From Minisyncoccota bacterium (GTDB taxonomy: Bacteria; Patescibacteriota; Minisyncoccia; Phycocordibacterales; UBA9973), in assembly GCA_041665925.1 (NCBI GenBank), contig JBAYHW010000004.1, forward strand, positions 10,703-74,702: DNA of 64,000 nucleotides, in the 5' to 3' direction. The position numbers were made by a program, and so were the translations under genes. The notes beneath the pieces are model-generated. The model worked only from the letters and a program-made list of their open reading frames with translations, ran no database searches and was not told the DNA's origin. Below are positions 135-45,268 of the stretch, piece by piece (positions within the stretch are counted from its first letter, which is position 1; each line of letters begins with the position of its first letter).

Positions 135-170
135 TTTTAAATACTAGCAAAAATATGTTAAAATAGCACT

Positions 171-245
171 ACTTGTCCCGTACTAAATTTTTGATTACGT
201 GGTACAATGATAAATATTATTATATAAAATTTTAGTACCGGGATG
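171..245 (+). repeat. start-codon-embedded inverted-repeat element, subfamily A (ATG = exonuclease start 243)
   Basis: ACTTGTCCCGTACTAAATTTT ... AAAATTTTAGTACCGGGATG. Confidence 0.7.
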
Positions 246-956
246 CCAAAACTAATATTTTTTGATACAGAGACCACAGGCAACACTGAAGAAGACTTTT
301 TAGTCCAGATTGCTTATAAAACTGGCGATGAATCTTTTTCCGAACTTTATAAACCAGAAATAAAAATTCCTCCGGAAGCTTCCGCGGTGCATCACATCAC
401 GAATAAGATGGTAGAAAATAAACCCACCTTTAAAGAAAGCACTGATCAACCAATTATTAAAAAACTTTTTGAAGATAAAGATTCAGTCGTCGTCGCTCAC
501 AATGCCCCCTTTGACCTGATGGTCATAAAAAAGGAAGATATCATACCGAAAAATTTCATTTGTACTCTGCGCGTAGCCCGCGAGCTAGACCCCGAAGGAA
601 AAATTGAACGCTACAATTTACAATATTTACGTTACTTACTAGACCTAGACGTGGAAGCTACAGCGCACGATGCCCTCGGTGACGTTTTAGTATTAGAAAA
701 ACTTTTTGATAGATTGAAAAATAAACTTACTGAAAGTGGTTTAAGTGAAGACGAAGCTATTGCGAAAATGATAGAAATTTCTTCGCATCCATCAATCTTT
801 CGTACCTTCAGCTTCGGCAAGCATAACGGTAAAAAGATAGAGGAAGTACTCACCACCGACCGCGGATACCTGGAGTGGCTACTTGCCCAGAAGCTCGAAA
901 GTGGCCAGCTAGAAGAAGATTGGATTTACACTCTAAAGCATCATTTGGAGAAATAG
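243..956 (+). CDS. DnaQ-like DEDDh 3-prime-5-prime exonuclease with small C-terminal domain
   Basis: Exo motifs FFDTETTG, HNAPFD, HDALGD in ORF translation. Confidence 0.8.
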   Translation: MPKLIFFDTETTGNTEEDFLVQIAYKTGDESFSELYKPEIKIPPEASAVHHITNKMVENKPTFKESTDQPIIKKLFEDKDSVVVAHNAPFDLMVIKKEDIIPKNFICTLRVARELDPEGKIERYNLQYLRYLLDLDVEATAHDALGDVLVLEKLFDRLKNKLTESGLSEDEAIAKMIEISSHPSIFRTFSFGKHNGKKIEEVLTTDRGYLEWLLAQKLESGQLEEDWIYTLKHHLEK

Positions 957-9306: not shown

Positions 9307-11022
9307 CTATCGATCTGGGGGAACGTCGTAGTAATTTAATAAAAACTTGGTAATATCTAAAAACGGCACAGTCCACGTAGTCGCTGCATACTGAACTTCT
9401 TTCGGGTTAATTGCGTACAGAAAAATTATAAATTTTGGGTCATACGCTGGGAAATATCCGACAAAAGAATGCGTATGCTTGTCTTCATAATAACCTCCAG
9501 AAGTATTGTCTGCAACTTGCGCTGTTCCTGTTTTTACGGCGACACTAAAATGTTCCAAGCCTACCTTTAATCCTTTATCCATGACCGTCACTAGCATTCT
9601 GCTTATTTCCTGTGCAGTGACTTTAGAAATTTTCGTTGGGATAGTGGGATATGTCATTTTCTTGGATGTGCCGTTGTTATATTTTATTTCTTTCACTACA
9701 TGCGGCACGACTAAATTCCCTCCATTCCCAAGAGACGCCAGGGCCCGCACAAGCTCTATGGGGGTAAGCGCGATACCCTGCCCGAAAGCAGCGTTAGCAT
9801 ATTCTATTTCGCGGGGGCTAGTGAGAATGTTAGAGACGAGCCCGCTTGTTTCATTTGGTAAATCAATTCCTGTTTTATCTTTAATACCAAAAGCGAGGAG
9901 ATAATTTCTTAAATTTATTTTCCCGAGTTTACCTTCAACGAAAACCATCCCTGTGTTCAAAGATTGATTGAGTACGTCTTGCATTGTTGTCCCAGGTCCA
10001 CGTGCCTTCTTGTCAAAGTTAAATATTTCCTTCTTTTCAACTATTACCGAACCTTTATCGTTATACTGCGTAGATGCCGTTAGAACTCCTTCGTTTAGAG
10101 CAGCAGCCATCACGAGAGGTTTCACCACAGATCCAAATTCTAGAACATTTTCTACTAAAGGATTAGTAAAAACAGAAATTTGTTTTACGTCTGAAAAAGT
10201 ATTCGGATCAAAATCCGGCTTTGCCCCTAGTGCATAAATCGATCCATCCATGGGGTTCATAATTATCCCTCCGATAGCGTCCACATTATATTTATTTTTT
10301 ACTTCGGTTAGCTTTTTTTCTAAAAAATTTTGCACCTGAGGCTCAATGGTGGTAACCAAGTCTCCCTCGGGCTCCGCATCCTCAAACAAACTTTTATTAA
10401 TGTTAGAGAAAACTTCCGCGAAGAAGTTCACATATGGATTATCAGTGTTGCGGGCTAAAGTAGAATCATACTGACGCTCGAGACCGTATCTTCCTCCGAG
10501 TTCATCCCCTTTGTACCCTACAAATCCTAAAGCGTGAGAAGCCATATTTTCCCCGGGGTAAAAACGCCATTTTTCTTTAAAAATATTTACGCCGGGAAGT
10601 TTTAATGCAGAGATGGCATCAGCTTCTGTTTTAGAAATACGATTAGCTATTTCTTCGTAAGGATCATTAACCTTACTCGCCCGAGCTATGAAATTATCGT
10701 GATCAATGGAAATAATTTTTGATAATTTTTCGTAAGTATTCTCTGGATCCCCCAACTTAGCGGTATTCAGAGCTATCTTCAGTCCAGAAGTCTGCGTAGC
10801 AGCAGAAACGAGTTGCCCGTCTTTGCGTTCAAAATATATTGTGCCTCGTTCGTATATGTTTGAAGTCGGAGTAGCATACTGTCTGTCTGCTGTCTCTCCA
10901 TATATTCGTCCATTTACAACTTGCACGTAAAAAAGCTTGGTTACAAGTATCACTGCAAACAAGACCACACAAAAGAGGATGATTCTGGAGCGAATCTTAA
11001 AACTAGATTTCATTGTTGGCAA
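9307..11022 (-). CDS. ftsI: penicillin-binding protein / FtsI transpeptidase
   Basis: SVVK, SLN, KTG motifs; dcw context. Confidence 0.85.
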   Translation of the reverse strand: MPTMKSSFKIRSRIILFCVVLFAVILVTKLFYVQVVNGRIYGETADRQYATPTSNIYERGTIYFERKDGQLVSAATQTSGLKIALNTAKLGDPENTYEKLSKIISIDHDNFIARASKVNDPYEEIANRISKTEADAISALKLPGVNIFKEKWRFYPGENMASHALGFVGYKGDELGGRYGLERQYDSTLARNTDNPYVNFFAEVFSNINKSLFEDAEPEGDLVTTIEPQVQNFLEKKLTEVKNKYNVDAIGGIIMNPMDGSIYALGAKPDFDPNTFSDVKQISVFTNPLVENVLEFGSVVKPLVMAAALNEGVLTASTQYNDKGSVIVEKKEIFNFDKKARGPGTTMQDVLNQSLNTGMVFVEGKLGKINLRNYLLAFGIKDKTGIDLPNETSGLVSNILTSPREIEYANAAFGQGIALTPIELVRALASLGNGGNLVVPHVVKEIKYNNGTSKKMTYPTIPTKISKVTAQEISRMLVTVMDKGLKVGLEHFSVAVKTGTAQVADNTSGGYYEDKHTHSFVGYFPAYDPKFIIFLYAINPKEVQYAATTWTVPFLDITKFLLNYYDVPPDR

Positions 11023-11363: not shown

Positions 11364-12302
11364 TTATTTTGTTTTTTCTAAAATTCGTAACTTTGCACTT
11401 CTGGCTCTGGGGTTATTTTTTAATTCTTCAGATCCCGCTATTATTGGCTTTTTATTTATCAGTTTTGCTTGGCCTTCTTTTTCTAATTCTTTAAAAAATC
11501 TTTTTACTATTCTGTCTTCTAAACTATGAAAAGAAATGACTGACATCCTCCCATTCACCCTAAGTGCATTAAACCCTTTCCTCAAACCAGTCTCTAAGCT
11601 TCGAAGTTCATCATTGACTGCTATCCGTAAAGCTTGAAACGTTCGTGTGGCGCAGTGCACCCTCTCTCTCTTATATGCCCCACCCACTGCACCTTCTATT
11701 ATCTTTACTAAATCGAACGTGGTCTTAATTTCTGCTTTTTTTCTGTGTTCCACGATAGCTTTAGCAATTCTTCGGCTTAGCTTCTCTTCGCCATAACCAT
11801 AGATAATGTCGGCTATGCTTTGCTCTTCCCAAGTATTTACAATCTCCCCCGCTGTAATATCTTCCGGAAGAGGATTTTCCTTCATGGTCATTAAGAGTGG
11901 TTCATCGATCAAAAAAGAAAATCCTCGCCCAGAACTCCCCAACTGATCCGAACTTAAACCTAGATCGAATACAATCGCATCTACTTCTTGGGTACAATTC
12001 TTTTGCAACACTTCGTCTATATCTCGAAAGTTCGCATTGATGAAAGAAATATCACAATTCAAGATGCTAAACTTATCTCCGACTCGTTCAAAAACGTTTC
12101 TGTCTTGATCAAGGGCAATAATTTTCACTTTGGGAAATCTTTTACAAATTTCCGCCGAGTGCCCTCCACCACCGAAGGTGCAATCAAGTACAAACGAGCC
12201 TGGACCTAAGTTCAAACCATCTATTGTTTCTTTTAAAAGAACTGTCTTGTGTATGCTTTCCATAATTGTTGTTTTTGCAAACACAATTTTAGGGGATTTC
12301 AA
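11364..12302 (-). CDS. rsmH: 16S rRNA m4C1402 methyltransferase RsmH (MraW)
   Basis: VLDCTFGGGGHS motif. Confidence 0.9.
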   Translation of the reverse strand: MKSPKIVFAKTTIMESIHKTVLLKETIDGLNLGPGSFVLDCTFGGGGHSAEICKRFPKVKIIALDQDRNVFERVGDKFSILNCDISFINANFRDIDEVLQKNCTQEVDAIVFDLGLSSDQLGSSGRGFSFLIDEPLLMTMKENPLPEDITAGEIVNTWEEQSIADIIYGYGEEKLSRRIAKAIVEHRKKAEIKTTFDLVKIIEGAVGGAYKRERVHCATRTFQALRIAVNDELRSLETGLRKGFNALRVNGRMSVISFHSLEDRIVKRFFKELEKEGQAKLINKKPIIAGSEELKNNPRARSAKLRILEKTK

Positions 12303-12369
12303 GGCTATAGGCCAAGAACGTTATTTGGATTTTATATAAATCCGTCCCCTAAAATTATGTTTTCAAAAA

Positions 12370-15068: not shown

Positions 15069-15536
15069 TTAAGATACGCTGATGATTTTATAATTGACTA
15101 CCCCGTTTGGAGTTTTGAAGGAAACACTGTCTCCTTTCTTTTTTCCAAACAACGCAACTCCTACTGGAGAATGGTTAGAAATTTTTCCAAGTGTCATATC
15201 TGCCTCTTCACTTCCTACTATAACATATTTTTTTTCTTCTTGAGTGCCTTCCTTTTGCACAACTACCTTGGAGCCTATTTCAATTATATCTCCACCGCCG
15301 CCTTTAACAGTCTGTGCATCTTGCAGTATCTTTTCAATTTTCAGAATGCGTGCTTCTAGCTTACCCTGCTCTTCACGGGTTTGATGATATTCGGCGTTCT
15401 CTGATAAGTCTCCCAGGGACTTGGCATACTCTAAATTGGCCAAAATTTCTTTTCTTTTTGGGCCTTTTAAGTCAACAAGCTCGGCTTCTAGAGCTCGTCT
15501 TTTTTCTATTGTTATATAATCTCCAGCTTGGTTCAT
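15069..15536 (-). CDS. greA: transcription elongation factor GreA
   Basis: N-terminal coiled coil plus FKBP-like C-domain. Confidence 0.85.
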   Translation of the reverse strand: MNQAGDYITIEKRRALEAELVDLKGPKRKEILANLEYAKSLGDLSENAEYHQTREEQGKLEARILKIEKILQDAQTVKGGGGDIIEIGSKVVVQKEGTQEEKKYVIVGSEEADMTLGKISNHSPVGVALFGKKKGDSVSFKTPNGVVNYKIISVS

Positions 15537-15672
15537 CCTATTTATTTAATATTGTAATTAAAAACGATTAAATCCCGCTAACGGGATTCATAGATAGCTT
15601 ATATTAAACTTTTTTAATAAAAAGTCAATGACTCCTTGCTAAAAATCTTTTTTATGATAACCTTAGGTTCAT

Positions 15673-15909: not shown

Positions 15910-16248
15910 ATGGACCGTAAGTTTTCTAAAATCAAAAATGACATTTTAGGGAAAGACTATTCCCTATCTATCGCCTTCGTAAGTGAGAAAAAATCTAGAG
16001 AATTAAATAAGAAATATAGGAAAAAAGACAGGGCTACAAATGTTTTGTCTTTTGCATTACGTAAAAATGAAGGAGAACTGGTCTTATGTAAAGCTGTGAT
16101 AAAAAAAGAAGCAAGAGATTTTGGAAAAACTTTTGCTCAATTCTTGGGATTTTTAGTTATCCACGGAATGCTACACCTAAAAGGCTACGATCATGGAAAA
16201 AAAATGGAACGATTAGAAGAAAAATACTTGTCCCGTACTAAATTTTAA
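15910..16248 (+). CDS. ybeY: rRNA maturation endoribonuclease YbeY
   Basis: H-x3-H-x5-H motif HGMLHLKGYDH. Confidence 0.85.
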   Translation: MDRKFSKIKNDILGKDYSLSIAFVSEKKSRELNKKYRKKDRATNVLSFALRKNEGELVLCKAVIKKEARDFGKTFAQFLGFLVIHGMLHLKGYDHGKKMERLEEKYLSRTKF

Positions 16249-16299
16249 AATAAGTGATATAATATTGATATTAGAATTTAAAATTTTAGTATCGGGATG
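16226..16299 (+). repeat. start-codon-embedded inverted-repeat element, subfamily A (arms ACTTGTCCCGTACTAAATTTT / AAAATTTTAGTATCGGGATG; ATG = ftsA start)
   Basis: Left arm identical 21-mer to 171..191; right arm contains ATG 16297. Confidence 0.7.
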
Positions 16300-17460
16300 A
16301 TCAGAAATATTTCTATCGGAATAGACGTAGGCTCACAAACGACACGAGTCGTGGTGGGAGAGTTTCTAAAAGGAGAAAAAAATCCTAAAATAATTGGCGC
16401 GGGAGAAACGCCGACTTTAGGAATGCGACATGGCTATGTTACAAATTCAGATCTCGCTGCTACTTCTATCAAAACTGCAGTCGAACAAGCGGAGAAATCT
16501 TCGGGAATAAAAATAAAGAAAGCCTTCATATCCATTTCGAGCACTTCCTTGCGCGGAGAAATGAGTGGCGGAGAAACTATTGTTTCTAAAGCTGATGGCG
16601 AAGTTACGAGCTTGGATATAAATAAAGCTCTCCAGGATTGTGAAGATAATTTAAACATAGGCAACAAAAAAGTTATCCATGTATACCCGGTGTCTTTCCG
16701 CCTGGATGGGAAGGAGGTGGAGGGACGCATGGAAGGTATGCGAGGCACGAAAATTGAGGCCAAGGCCCTTTTTATCACGTATTCTATAGTTCATTTAGAA
16801 GACCTGCTTGGAGCCATAGCTGAGGCTGGAGTAGAGACCCTAGACGTCATAGCCTCCCCTGTAGCGATAAGCAACATTGCCCTTACTGAAAAACAAAAAA
16901 TTGTAGGAGTCGCTCTAGTAGACATCGGCGCAGAGAAGACGACGTTGTCTGTCTTTGAAGATGGAAAATTAATTTCTATGAATACTTATTCTATCGGTGG
17001 CACAGAAGTTACGAACGATATCGCTCTCGGATTTAAAATTACTCTGGATAAAGCAGACGCTCTCAAACTGGGAAATGCTACCGAAGAATTTTCAAAGAAA
17101 AAACTTGATGAAATCATTGAGGCACGTCTGTGTGATATTTTCGAATCAATAGAAAATAGTTTAAAGAAAATGAAACGCTCAGAACTCTTACCGGCTGGAG
17201 TTGTCTTCGTCGGAGGAGGATCAAGTACGCCAGGACTTATAGAATTATCTAAATCAGAGCTTAAACTCCCTTCAAGTATCGGGATGACAGATATTTTCGG
17301 CACCTCTAAGACTAAGCTCCGCGACCCATCTTGGTTTAATGTTCTTGGACTACTAACTTCCGGTAAGGACAATGGAGGGCAGTCTGATAGCTCCCTAAAT
17401 AACCTTTTTAAAGATCTTAAAAATACAATAAAATCAAGCATAAAACAGTTAATGCCGTAA
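16297..17460 (+). CDS. ftsA: cell division protein FtsA
   Basis: Actin-like ATPase motifs, followed by ftsZ. Confidence 0.85.
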   Translation: MIRNISIGIDVGSQTTRVVVGEFLKGEKNPKIIGAGETPTLGMRHGYVTNSDLAATSIKTAVEQAEKSSGIKIKKAFISISSTSLRGEMSGGETIVSKADGEVTSLDINKALQDCEDNLNIGNKKVIHVYPVSFRLDGKEVEGRMEGMRGTKIEAKALFITYSIVHLEDLLGAIAEAGVETLDVIASPVAISNIALTEKQKIVGVALVDIGAEKTTLSVFEDGKLISMNTYSIGGTEVTNDIALGFKITLDKADALKLGNATEEFSKKKLDEIIEARLCDIFESIENSLKKMKRSELLPAGVVFVGGGSSTPGLIELSKSELKLPSSIGMTDIFGTSKTKLRDPSWFNVLGLLTSGKDNGGQSDSSLNNLFKDLKNTIKSSIKQLMP

Positions 17461-21873: not shown

Positions 21874-21900
21874 ATATTTTTTATATTAACTACTAATGTA

Positions 21901-21926
21901 ATATATTCTATACGTATAAAATATAT
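21901..21926. promoter_or_regulatory. 26-bp near-perfect palindrome (ATATATTCTATAC|GTATAAAATATAT) upstream of the XRE operon: candidate operator
   Basis: Seen directly; 1 mismatch between half-sites; central TATACGTATA perfect. Confidence 0.4.
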
Positions 21927-21951
21927 TACACAAGTAGGGCTGTGGATAACT

Positions 21952-22583: not shown

Positions 22584-23024
22584 ATGAAATCATATAAATA
22601 TGTAAAAATGATGTTCTGGTTAGGTCTCGCAGGGGTATTGTTCTCTGGATATCTAAGCAGTGTGAAGTTTTTCACCTCCACTTGTGCCCTTAATGAGCCT
22701 TGCCCTTATTTCCTCGGCTACCCTGCTTGCTATTTTGGCTTTGGAATGTTTCTTATTATTTTCGTCTCGGCCCTACTCGGACTTATGAAGAAAATTTCTG
22801 AAAAAGGAACTGCGCAAATTTTAACTACTATCTCAGCCCTCGGAATACTCTTCGCAGGATATTTCACAATTCCTGAAATTCAGAAACTTTTATCAAATAC
22901 TGAAACAGGATACTCCCTCGGCTTACCTACCTGCGCATATGGGCTTGTCTTCTATCTCTTAATTTTTATTCTCTCACTTTCGTATTTAAGGAAAGGTGAA
23001 CAAAGTATAAATGGATCCCGTTAG
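22584..23024 (+). CDS. polytopic membrane protein with paired Cys (DsbB/VKOR-like thiol-oxidoreductase?)
   Basis: 4 TM helices; C-x5-C loop and second Cys-containing loop. Confidence 0.35.
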   Translation: MKSYKYVKMMFWLGLAGVLFSGYLSSVKFFTSTCALNEPCPYFLGYPACYFGFGMFLIIFVSALLGLMKKISEKGTAQILTTISALGILFAGYFTIPEIQKLLSNTETGYSLGLPTCAYGLVFYLLIFILSLSYLRKGEQSINGSR

Positions 23025-23098
23025 AGATAATAAGATACATGTTTCTAACCTTGAGGAAATAATTGTAAAAAAATATGGTAATCTCTAACGGGATGGAT
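23011..23098 (+). repeat. start-codon-embedded inverted-repeat element, subfamily B (ATGGATCCCGTTAGAGAT ... ATCTCTAACGGGATGGAT; ATG = udg start)
   Basis: 16/18 inverted repeat, 52-nt spacer; right arm carries ATG 23094. Confidence 0.7.
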
Positions 23099-27230: not shown

Positions 27231-27314
27231 TTGATCCCGTAGTGAATTTTGCCAACGCGCTTTAGCGCCTTATAAATATTGGCAAAATCTACTACAGGAT
27301 GATATTATTAGGGC

Positions 27315-27395
27315 ATGGATCCCGTTAAAAATAGCCGCGCCAGCGGTCCCACGGACTCGTCAAAAAAGACGAGCGCGATTTCTAATGGGATGGAT
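27315..27395 (+). repeat. start-codon-embedded inverted-repeat element, subfamily B (ATG = valS start)
   Basis: ATGGATCCCGTTAAAAAT ... ATTTCTAATGGGATGGAT, GC-rich hairpin spacer. Confidence 0.65.
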
Positions 27396-45199: not shown

Positions 45200-45268
45200 C
45201 CCGTTAGAAATTTAACAAATTAATTTTTTGTAATGAAATATGGTTCATAGATTTCTAACGGGGTCCAT
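45194..45268 (-). repeat. start-codon-embedded inverted-repeat element, subfamily B (minus orientation; ATG = murJ start 45197..45199)
   Basis: rc: ATGGACCCCGTTAGAAAT ... ATTTCTAACGGGATGGAG. Confidence 0.7.

Follow-up and report, generated by a model that had tools for sequence, protein, structure and literature searches.

The 64,000-nucleotide stretch of a Minisyncoccota genome that was analysed here (contig JBAYHW010000004.1, positions 10,703 to 74,702 of the forward strand; hereafter the window) contains, at 171-245 and 16226-16299, two copies of a ~72-nucleotide (nt) element, ACYTGTCCCGTACTAAATTTT...AAAATTTTAGTAYYGGG, whose last base abuts an ATG start codon, in one case that of a DnaQ-like exonuclease gene and in the other that of ftsA. 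We read both regions as copies of a low-copy, dispersed, hairpin-forming miniature repeat of Candidatus Nomurabacteria (Patescibacteria, also known as the Candidate Phyla Radiation or CPR), here called the C-type repeat, which is like a miniature inverted-repeat transposable element (MITE). Taken as a whole, this reading is considered moderately probable, while its descriptive part is held with high confidence.

Two copies of one element in the window

An earlier note on this DNA had described an identical 21-mer left arm at the two sites, and this holds: ACTTGTCCCGTACTAAATTTT has exactly two matches in the window (171-191 and 16226-16246), where shuffled sequence gives an expectation of 0. 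The right-arm 20-mer AAAATTTTAGTAYCGGGATG also occurs exactly twice (226-245 and 16280-16299; 0.03 expected), and the two ~75-nt units are alike over their full length (repeat families D3 and D12). The right arm had been called the inverse of the left, and an inverted repeat does exist, but it is an imperfect one, in which CCCGTACTAAATTTT and AAAATTTTAGTAYCGGG are opposed with two one-base bulges (pair I20, with which the folds agree).

Both ATGs are start codons, as had been proposed. Pfam matches place the start of an RNase_T/ExoX-like exonuclease at 243-245 and that of FtsA at 16297-16299, and the orthologues of both proteins start at the same residue as the window genes, which for all 80 FtsA orthologues is that of MIRNIS.... 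The left arm of the ftsA copy had rightly been placed inside the 3' end of ybeY, where it encodes the terminal YLSRTKF of YbeY and the stop codon TAA at 16246-16248. The TATAAT-like boxes reported for the spacers are likewise present and can be read from the sequence as extended -10 elements in both copies (TGgTACAAT at 200-208 and TGaTATAAT at 16255-16263), and that of the ftsA copy is invariant in related ftsA copies. This second box is likely the ftsA promoter and, by analogy, the box in the loop of copy 1 may act in the same way; the loop promoters are probably real in both window copies. Copy 1 itself lies between the exonuclease promoter and the exonuclease ATG, and the spacing of 6 nt from the upstream -10 box suggests that the exonuclease transcript would start at the first A of the element (171). 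The features of both loci, together with those of related elements in the window, are listed in Table 1.

Table 1. Positions in the window of the two C-type copies, of the genes and promoter-like boxes beside them and of the related B-type elements
Feature	Position	Strand	Remarks
Upstream extended -10, TGtTAAAAT	156..164	+	TTTAAA-17-TAAAAT, TG ahead
C-type copy 1	171..242	+	ACTTG tail, left arm 175-193, loop, right arm 226-242; covariance model score 97.5 bits
Internal extended -10-like box TGgTACAAT, loop of copy 1	200..208	+	Read from sequence
ExoX/DnaQ-like 3'-5' exonuclease gene	243..956	+	Pfam RNase_T 3e-18, ExoX-like_C
ybeY	15910..16248	+	Last 7 codons and stop come from the left arm of the element
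C-type copy 2	16226..16296	+	Left arm 16230-16246 = 3' end of ybeY; right arm 16280-16296; covariance model score 82.1 bits
Internal extended -10 TGATATAAT, loop of copy 2	16255..16263	+	Kept in ftsA-site copies of relatives
ftsA	16297..17460	+	Pfam FtsA/SHS2; ATG directly abuts the element
B-type element before the UDG gene	23011..23092	+	Perfect 14-nt inverted repeat ATCCCGTTAGAGAT/ATCTCTAACGGGAT (I25); z = -4.7; ATG at 23093
Two tandem relatives, between tsaD and the true valS start at 27391	27231..27390	+	First 27231-27298, second 27315-27390
B-type element before the murJ ATG (45199-45197)	45200..45268	-	I24; flanked by an ATGGA direct repeat

Distribution of the C-type repeat

The loci of 80 relatives were retrieved by their FtsA protein and hence independently of the element; these relatives, with FtsA of 62-79% identity, are all Candidatus Nomurabacteria/Paceibacterota metagenome-assembled genomes, and 79 of the loci could be read at the junction of ybeY and ftsA. 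An intact C-type copy lies at this junction in 16 of the 79 readable Candidatus Nomurabacteria loci, one further locus (L037) has a decayed copy, and the rest are without one. Copies elsewhere in the loci of relatives lie ahead of rpsU (L014) and ahead of another gene (L035); 19 C-type copies are known from the relatives' loci in addition to the 2 of the window. Metagenome stretches were found by an exact match to the left-arm 18-mer, of which there were more than 119, itself a lower bound, and 116 unique copies were left after de-duplication. Among the matches listed, ATG follows at once in 111 of the 116 unique copies, an open reading frame of at least 60 amino acids is present in 105 of these 111, and every one of the 116 is in sense orientation to its downstream gene.

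Copies of the C-type start with ACYTG-TCCCGTACTAAATTTT and finish with AAAATTTTAGTAYYGGG, and they fall into two length classes, of ~70-74 nt (~72) and of ~101-114 nt (~105-110), that differ in the loop alone. The genes that they precede are unrelated housekeeping genes, such as ftsW, dnaB, rplQ, rpsI, rplM, ddl, serS, clpP, efp, rpsP, secY, those of pilins and many more. The copy number is low, with 1-2 copies per contig of 60-200 kb, and a covariance model found only a few extra copies in 0.7 Mb. In Rfam, only tRNAs reached the gathering score in the whole window, and the region 120-300 had no meaningful match at E<=10; a viral contig collection held no copy, and no published description was found in the literature on leaderless genes, MITEs and hairpins of CPR/Patescibacteria. 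The earlier note would have abandoned its proposal if the genome held no further copies and relatives showed no conservation; many copies exist, and the element is kept in relatives.

Insertion at the start codon

The window, whose contig is also present in an ENA metagenome assembly, has a G+C content of 39%. Its genes have an SD-like (Shine-Dalgarno-like) 4-mer upstream in only 3 of 60 cases, and 17 of the 60 have a TAnnnT box 5-8 nt ahead of the start codon. In dozens of orthologues of greA, rpsU, the UDG gene and the exonuclease gene, there is a -35/-10 promoter whose -10 box ends 5-9 nt from the ATG, matching the close spacing of -10 box and ATG that has been described as the signature of leaderless transcription in 'group C' genomes (PMC6028130). 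From these sequence features, initiation in this lineage is predicted to be largely SD-independent, with many first genes leaderless (a -10 box, ~6 nt and then ATG).

Filled and empty sites can be compared at three genes. At the exonuclease site, empty loci read TGyTAAAAT-N6-ATG (L103 and L145), and the window has the same box, the same 6-nt spacing, the 72 nt of the element and then ATG. At rpsU, the empty site of the window reads ...ggttcat/ATGGCT (slashes mark the junctions), and the filled site of L014 reads ...ggctcat/ACCTG...GGG/ATGGCA; at ftsA, the empty ...gaaaaat/ATGATC corresponds to the filled ...gaaaaat/ACTTG...GGG/ATGATC. Since the three comparisons agree, the element reads, at the level of sequence, as an insertion exactly between position -1 and the A of the ATG. 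In the metagenome copies, the TAnnnT box has a peak exactly 6 nt ahead of the first base of the element (29 of the 113 copies listed, with 1-11 at other spacings), so that, in copies that have a promoter, the element's first A would take the place of the A of the ATG. Metagenome copies without such a box lie close behind the stop codon of an upstream gene.

Gains appear to have recurred at the same nucleotide. In trees of FtsA and YbeY, the filled ftsA loci are scattered, each beside empty sisters, and the empty loci have a sharply conserved, -10-like CATAGTAGTACAATGGAG inside ybeY, ~20 nt ahead of ftsA, which the filled loci have lost in various ways (GGTAAAAAA, GGCGCAAAG, GGAAAAATG, AGCGCAAAA and others). 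The ftsA sequence that flanks filled loci is no more alike than expected and carries no recombination signal. The simplest reading of these sequences is that the empty state is ancestral and was followed by many separate gains at one nucleotide. A single ancient ftsA insertion that was then spread by homologous recombination was rejected, as the filled loci are not closer to one another in the adjoining ftsA sequence, and the apparently shared 'HGKKME' of YbeY is in fact heterogeneous decay of the embedded -10 box. The element-free relatives (L002-L081; window equivalent 16190-16300) have a TAGTACAAT/TAGTAGAAT box in ybeY, ~20 nt before the ftsA ATG, which is probably an ftsA promoter embedded in ybeY. 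In these relatives, the ybeY frame also runs on for 92 nt (30 codons, rich in Arg and Lys) into ftsA in another frame.

Other starts have been occupied more than once as well. The rpsU start has four different elements in four genomes; besides a C-type copy, these are a B-type stem that bears an ACTTG tail, a variant whose arms co-vary, and a reversed fragment. Several B-type elements have been found at the greA start. The reversed fragment is a 44-nt insert of L007 (~9329-9372, in the divergent region between rpsU and greA) at the palindromic CAT/ATG of the rpsU start; it reads ACTTGTCCCGCC...GGGGG/ATG on the strand opposite to rpsU, is the sole element-like sequence that was seen reversed to its adjacent gene, and may reflect a preference, at the level of DNA, for linking the right end to an ATG.

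Such a pattern could be that of a purely selfish miniature transposable element, whose arms would be terminal inverted repeats for a transposase acting in trans and would have no role in expression, and of which only copies at start codons are seen because ATG is the target of the enzyme and insertion elsewhere is lethal. Presence/absence polymorphism and repeated insertion at the same sites are in keeping with this explanation, as are the near-identical copies that L099 and L149 each have on one contig and the reversed fragment at the palindromic rpsU start of L007. However, the window has 130 non-start intergenic ATGs and 62 gene starts, so that a bare ATG as the target would put only ~32% of copies at true starts and about two thirds at non-start intergenic ATGs, in both orientations, as opposed to the 96% at true starts, all in sense, that were observed. 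A transposase or autonomous element, which this explanation would need, was also not found in ~2 Mb of loci, and on balance we think it unlikely. Either the integration step recognises start regions, or selection maintains only those copies that lie at starts.

B-type relatives of the element

The earlier note had assigned to a subfamily B the core TCCCGT ... CGGGATG that is shared with the two C-type copies, and this core is indeed found at 23011-23095, 45268-45197 (minus strand), 27315-27393 and 27231-27301. The window thus has four more members with the frame TCCCGT...ACGGG followed by ATG, one at the UDG gene, one at murJ and two before valS (Table 1), the second of the valS pair with a G.U wobble in CCCGTTA/TAATGGG. 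The element at the UDG gene is flanked on either side by ATGGA, a 5-nt direct repeat. Of 15 B-type copies, 11 have ATGGA, ATGAA or ATGCA right ahead of TCCCGT, in agreement with the first five bases of their gene, and a rough hand estimate from start-context frequencies puts the chance of 11/11 repeat matches at <1e-6. From sequence, this repeat looks like a 5-bp target duplication, as the selfish explanation would have it. In the C-type, the constant tail ACYTG takes the position of this gene-matching repeat, and the lack of a target duplication there speaks against that explanation.

Two of the genes with B-type elements have further peculiarities at their starts. The longest open reading frame of valS starts at 27315 (MDPVKN...), with an ATG in the left flank of the element (27315-27393); the conserved N-terminus of ValRS begins at the ATG at 27391 (MDEKLKKPYDPK), and in L020 a similar element precedes VDERLLRPYDPK. 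At greA, the expected leaderless start is occupied by the left copy of the 5-nt repeat. The greA leader of the window (15537-15592, minus strand, with the greA ATG at 15536) starts with ATGAATCCCGTTAGCGGGATTTAATCGTTTTT after a leaderless-type promoter, shares a ATGAATCCCGT beginning with the B-type elements, and has a short TCCCG/CGGGA hairpin with a T-rich run behind it, an attenuator-like arrangement that is the same in L008, L016, L022 and L054.

The predicted hairpin and conservation of its arms

Every copy is predicted to fold into one long hairpin, with the four nucleotides ACYU free at the 5' end. The base of the stem is formed by U.G, G.U and U-A pairs with the start codon (UGU-AUG), followed by CCC/GGG, and in the family consensus the stem goes on through UUGAUUA/UAAUUAA to ~24 bp. 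At the exonuclease gene, the predicted fold pairs the A and U of the ATG (243-245) with the UG(U) tail of the element. The z-scores of the folds are -2.2 for copy 1 and -4.8 for copy 2, with a range of -2.2 to -6.5. The consensus has three G.U pairs and zero A.C mismatches, and the sense fold is the more stable one in 128 of 135 copies (means of -18.9 kcal/mol for sense and -13.8 kcal/mol for antisense). Because of this asymmetry and of the strict orientation of the copies, the modelled folds point to arms that matter at the level of the sense transcript.

At the ftsA site, the arms with their bulges and wobbles are nearly unchanged across species whose FtsA is 65-79% identical to that of the window, while the loop drifts, with the exception of GTGATATAAT (GTGGTATAAT in two), which is kept in every ftsA-site copy of the relatives while neighbouring loop positions vary. 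For a purely selfish element, arms held in this way next to a drifting loop, at a site where one copy has decayed, are not expected, and neither are wobble pairs that favour the sense RNA. Across subfamilies, the arm sequences differ and their pairing is kept (TTAGAGAT, TTAGAAAT, TACGAAAT, TAGTGAATTTTGCCAA, TATGAAAA).

These properties bear on the suggestion of the earlier note that a DNA-binding protein recognises YCCCGT half-sites flanking promoters, taken here as a model in which a dimeric regulator sits on the two arms and represses or loops the promoter between them. A TCCCGT/ACGGGA core common to all subfamilies and a good -10 box between the arms in both window copies and in all ftsA copies would suit this model, which we nevertheless regard as very improbable. 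Most copies are without a convincing promoter in the loop and lie downstream of a -10 box instead, so that they are transcribed. The arms come in two spacing classes (~72 and ~105-110 nt) with many types of loop, the arms of sister subfamilies differ yet stay complementary, the genes served have no common function, and TCCCGT alone is not enriched in the window (17 found, 17 expected). A DNA operator would moreover leave unexplained the single orientation of the 116 unique copies listed and the G.U wobbles, which exist only in the sense RNA. A simple palindromic operator was rejected on similar grounds, as its spacing is not fixed, most copies lie downstream of a -10 box and the genes are unrelated. 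A protein, for instance a transposase, may still recognise the conserved core as DNA.

A vertically inherited, non-mobile cis-regulatory RNA, such as a thermometer or a leader responsive to a ligand or protein, which controls a regulon, would account for the strong conservation of the arms and for a start codon that is held by weak U.G, G.U and U-A pairs at the base of the stem, as in RNA thermometers. We find it hardly credible here, since the loops of different types are unrelated and offer no conserved pocket, the genes are functionally unrelated, the element is patchy among sister species, different elements occur at one site and there is no Rfam match.

Proposed role of the element in the transcript

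The insertion would turn a leaderless or directly coupled start into one with a ~72-nt 5' leader. Judging from the -10 spacing, transcription would begin at the first A of the element, and the arms of the RNA could then form a long, A-U-rich, imperfect stem that hides the AUG and leaves only ~4 nt unpaired at the 5' end. Such a stem would set the 5' end, or else an upstream stop codon, beside the start codon; at ybeY and at the VKOR gene, the upstream stop codon does lie in the left arm. Translation of the full-length transcript would need the stem to be opened by a terminating or 5'-loaded ribosome, or to be cut. The stem may further insulate the gene from upstream transcription and translation, possibly protect the 5' end and possibly serve as a site for RNase III, an enzyme that CPR genomes keep along with RNase J (PMC12641178). 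Loss of the stem would leave a long leader without SD ahead of an essential gene, and purifying selection on the arms would follow because the stem must be kept once it has been inserted. The -10 box of the loop, present in both window copies and in all ftsA-site copies, would yield another transcript, in which the left arm is missing and the AUG is free. In these copies, the element would insulate the gene from upstream expression and bring its own promoter, which at ftsA would replace the ancestral one in ybeY. This RNA-level mechanism, based on modelled folds, is put forward tentatively, and we find it nearly as credible as its negation.

The hairpin might instead be a processing signal, in which a stem of ~20-24 bp is cut, for example by RNase III, to restore a short leader or none, so that the insertion would be phenotypically silent. 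This would explain why insertions are tolerated at leaderless essential genes; the consensus stem of ~24 bp (UGUCCCGUACUAAAUUUUUGAUUA / UAAUUAAAAUUUUAGUACUGGGAUG) amounts to about two helical turns, RNase III and RNase J have been retained in CPR genomes (PMC12641178), and Correia elements in Neisseria mRNAs are RNase III substrates (PMC2649163). The stem is, however, A-U-rich and bulged, loop length and upper-stem sequence differ between subfamilies, and RNase III cuts within stems as opposed to precisely at their base beside an AUG, which together make this explanation distinctly unlikely.

Several observations weigh against the reading of the C-type as a mobile hairpin repeat with a role in the sense RNA. 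Its arms are near-invariant, which makes covariation uninformative (1 compensatory pair among 12), and the complementarity that is kept across subfamilies is equally expected of the terminal inverted repeats of a mobile element. Conservation of the left arm in the metagenome set is by construction, as that set was found by the 18-mer. A -10 box at the right distance is present in only about a quarter of copies, with the others behind an upstream gene, and the putative transcription starts are deduced from -10 spacing. For essential genes without SD, such as ftsA and those of ribosomal proteins, an AUG hidden in a stem should be expected to hurt expression. As for movement, target duplication is absent from the C-type at all three comparisons of filled and empty sites, ~2 Mb of loci yielded neither a transposase nor a long autonomous relative, and mobility is deduced from distribution.

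Comparison with known repeats and structured leaders

Short, imperfect palindromes of the REP/BIME, ERIC and RUP/BOX kinds are transcribed, form stem-loops, affect mRNA fate and are moved by enzymes acting in trans. Such repeats are found mainly at 3' ends or in between genes and keep no fixed register, and REPs carry GTAG and go with RAYT transposases; to our knowledge, none is known at -1/+1 of start codons. No REP-like clusters or doublets of the C-type were seen in the window and the partial loci. Among transcribed palindromic mobile repeats, placement that is precise to the start codon is an unusual property.

An AUG within a stem that has weak or wobble base pairs is familiar from RNA thermometers (fourU, ROSE) and from the coupling stems of MS2 and of many operons. 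As in coupling stems, ribosomes that terminate at the left-arm stop codon of ybeY or of the VKOR gene could open the stem. Thermometers and coupling stems are, however, gene-specific and vertically inherited, whereas the C-type is one dispersed sequence before dozens of unrelated genes. Mobile promoters and MITEs that carry promoters are similar in that an identical short sequence with a -10 box lies before non-homologous genes, and at ftsA the ancestral promoter appears to have been replaced; unlike these, a good -10 box is present in only a subset of C-type copies, most of which lie downstream of a host promoter.

The closest known system is that of the Correia elements (CREE/NEMIS) of Neisseria, which are of 104-157 bp, have a TA target duplication, occur in both orientations at variable distance from genes and in more than 100 copies per genome, and can disrupt genes (PMC2649163). 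Common to both are a small, non-coding sequence with inverted-repeat ends and a dispersed, polymorphic occurrence that is often 5' of genes, and the hairpin of Correia elements in mRNA is bound or cut by RNase III, while the elements can also supply promoters (PMC2649163). Sequence similarity between the two is lacking, and the C-type is of ~72 nt, occurs about once per 50-100 kb, has no target duplication and is always in sense. The last base of the C-type also touches the ATG, and the element pairs with the start codon, in a lineage that is poor in SD and predicted to be leaderless. Membership in the Correia family was therefore rejected, as sequence, size and flanks all differ from the published description (PMC2649163).

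The C-type has several of the properties by which MITEs are recognised. It is short (~72 or ~105-110 nt), non-coding and dispersed before unrelated genes, its ends are imperfect terminal inverted repeats (TCCCGTACTAAATTTT and AAAATTTTAGTAYYGGGA, with two bulges and the ACYTG tail outside), and presence/absence polymorphism is seen at the ftsA, rpsU and exonuclease sites. A target-site duplication of fixed length is absent from the C-type, and B-type relatives have the 5-nt repeat ATGRA or ATGCA in 11/15 copies. A search of ~2 Mb of loci for matching ends 0.15-4 kb apart around a gene gave none, apart from pairs of separate copies or a chance match within a gene. The element is called MITE-like, and not a MITE, because a fixed target duplication and a known autonomous partner are lacking.

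Other candidates were considered and set aside. For an integron attC site, the order GTTAGAG...CTCTAAC runs opposite to R''...R', and GTTRRRY does not match the core. A leaderless start from a -10 box in the right arm would use TAGTAT/TAGTAC only 4 nt from the ATG, and the consensus TAGTAC is without the final T. Ribozymes and riboswitches are disfavoured by loops that are unrelated between types and by the lack of an Rfam match. Translational bypassing as in T4 gene 60, which the ATGGA...ATGGA repeats could suggest, was set aside as the flanking frames are those of different genes or one flank is the 5' end of the transcript. As for an intrinsic terminator or attenuator, there is no terminator-like site at either copy, and the stem is followed by AUG and coding sequence. 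The element is neither an attC site nor a terminator, and it belongs to no REP cluster or Rfam family.

Other inverted repeats in the window and in relatives

A compact hairpin, CCTGTCCCGTACCAAACTTGTTTTGGTTCGGGATTTGCTTTTTTTT, right after ftsA in L002 (7022-7060) begins with the CTGTCCCGTAC of the element and has a T run behind it, which gives it the look of a terminator made out of the core sequence of the element. Between mraZ and rsmH (12272-12369), the window has a 25-nt inverted repeat of 92% complementarity with a 48-nt spacer (TTTTAGGGGA/TCCCCTAAAA), which is unlike the C-type in sequence, ends 8 nt ahead of the likely rsmH ATG (12262) and is probably the other subfamily of the earlier note. 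A near-perfect palindrome of 24+24 nt at 21890-21937 (CTACTAATGTAATATATTCTATAC/GTATAAAATATATTACACAAGTAG), upstream of a DUF2178 / XRE-type helix-turn-helix gene pair, has very similar counterparts in L004 and L028 and is a candidate operator.

Significance for gene starts in CPR bacteria

The CPR/Patescibacteria account for much of bacterial diversity, and almost nothing is known of how they initiate transcription and translation. A dispersed hairpin repeat that lies repeatedly at the nucleotide before an ATG, is strongly constrained and appears to have taken over the role of promoter at ftsA is a new behaviour for a repeat. Elements of this kind can mislead the calling of gene starts, as they have for valS in the window. 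If the reading given here is true, the C-type would be a natural portable 5' leader with an insertion mechanism directed to start codons, would provide a handle for gene-start annotation, and would offer a testable system for the initiation of ribosomes on structured leaders without SD. The C-type may even be a mobile element that homes, exact to the nucleotide, to -1/+1 of leaderless or coupled starts and provides them with a portable 5' leader; this leader would be looped out, be removed by processing or serve as a new module for SD-independent initiation or insulation. We regard homing as doubtful; if true, it would connect DNA mobility with the way in which gene starts are defined in CPR bacteria, a link that has not been described before.

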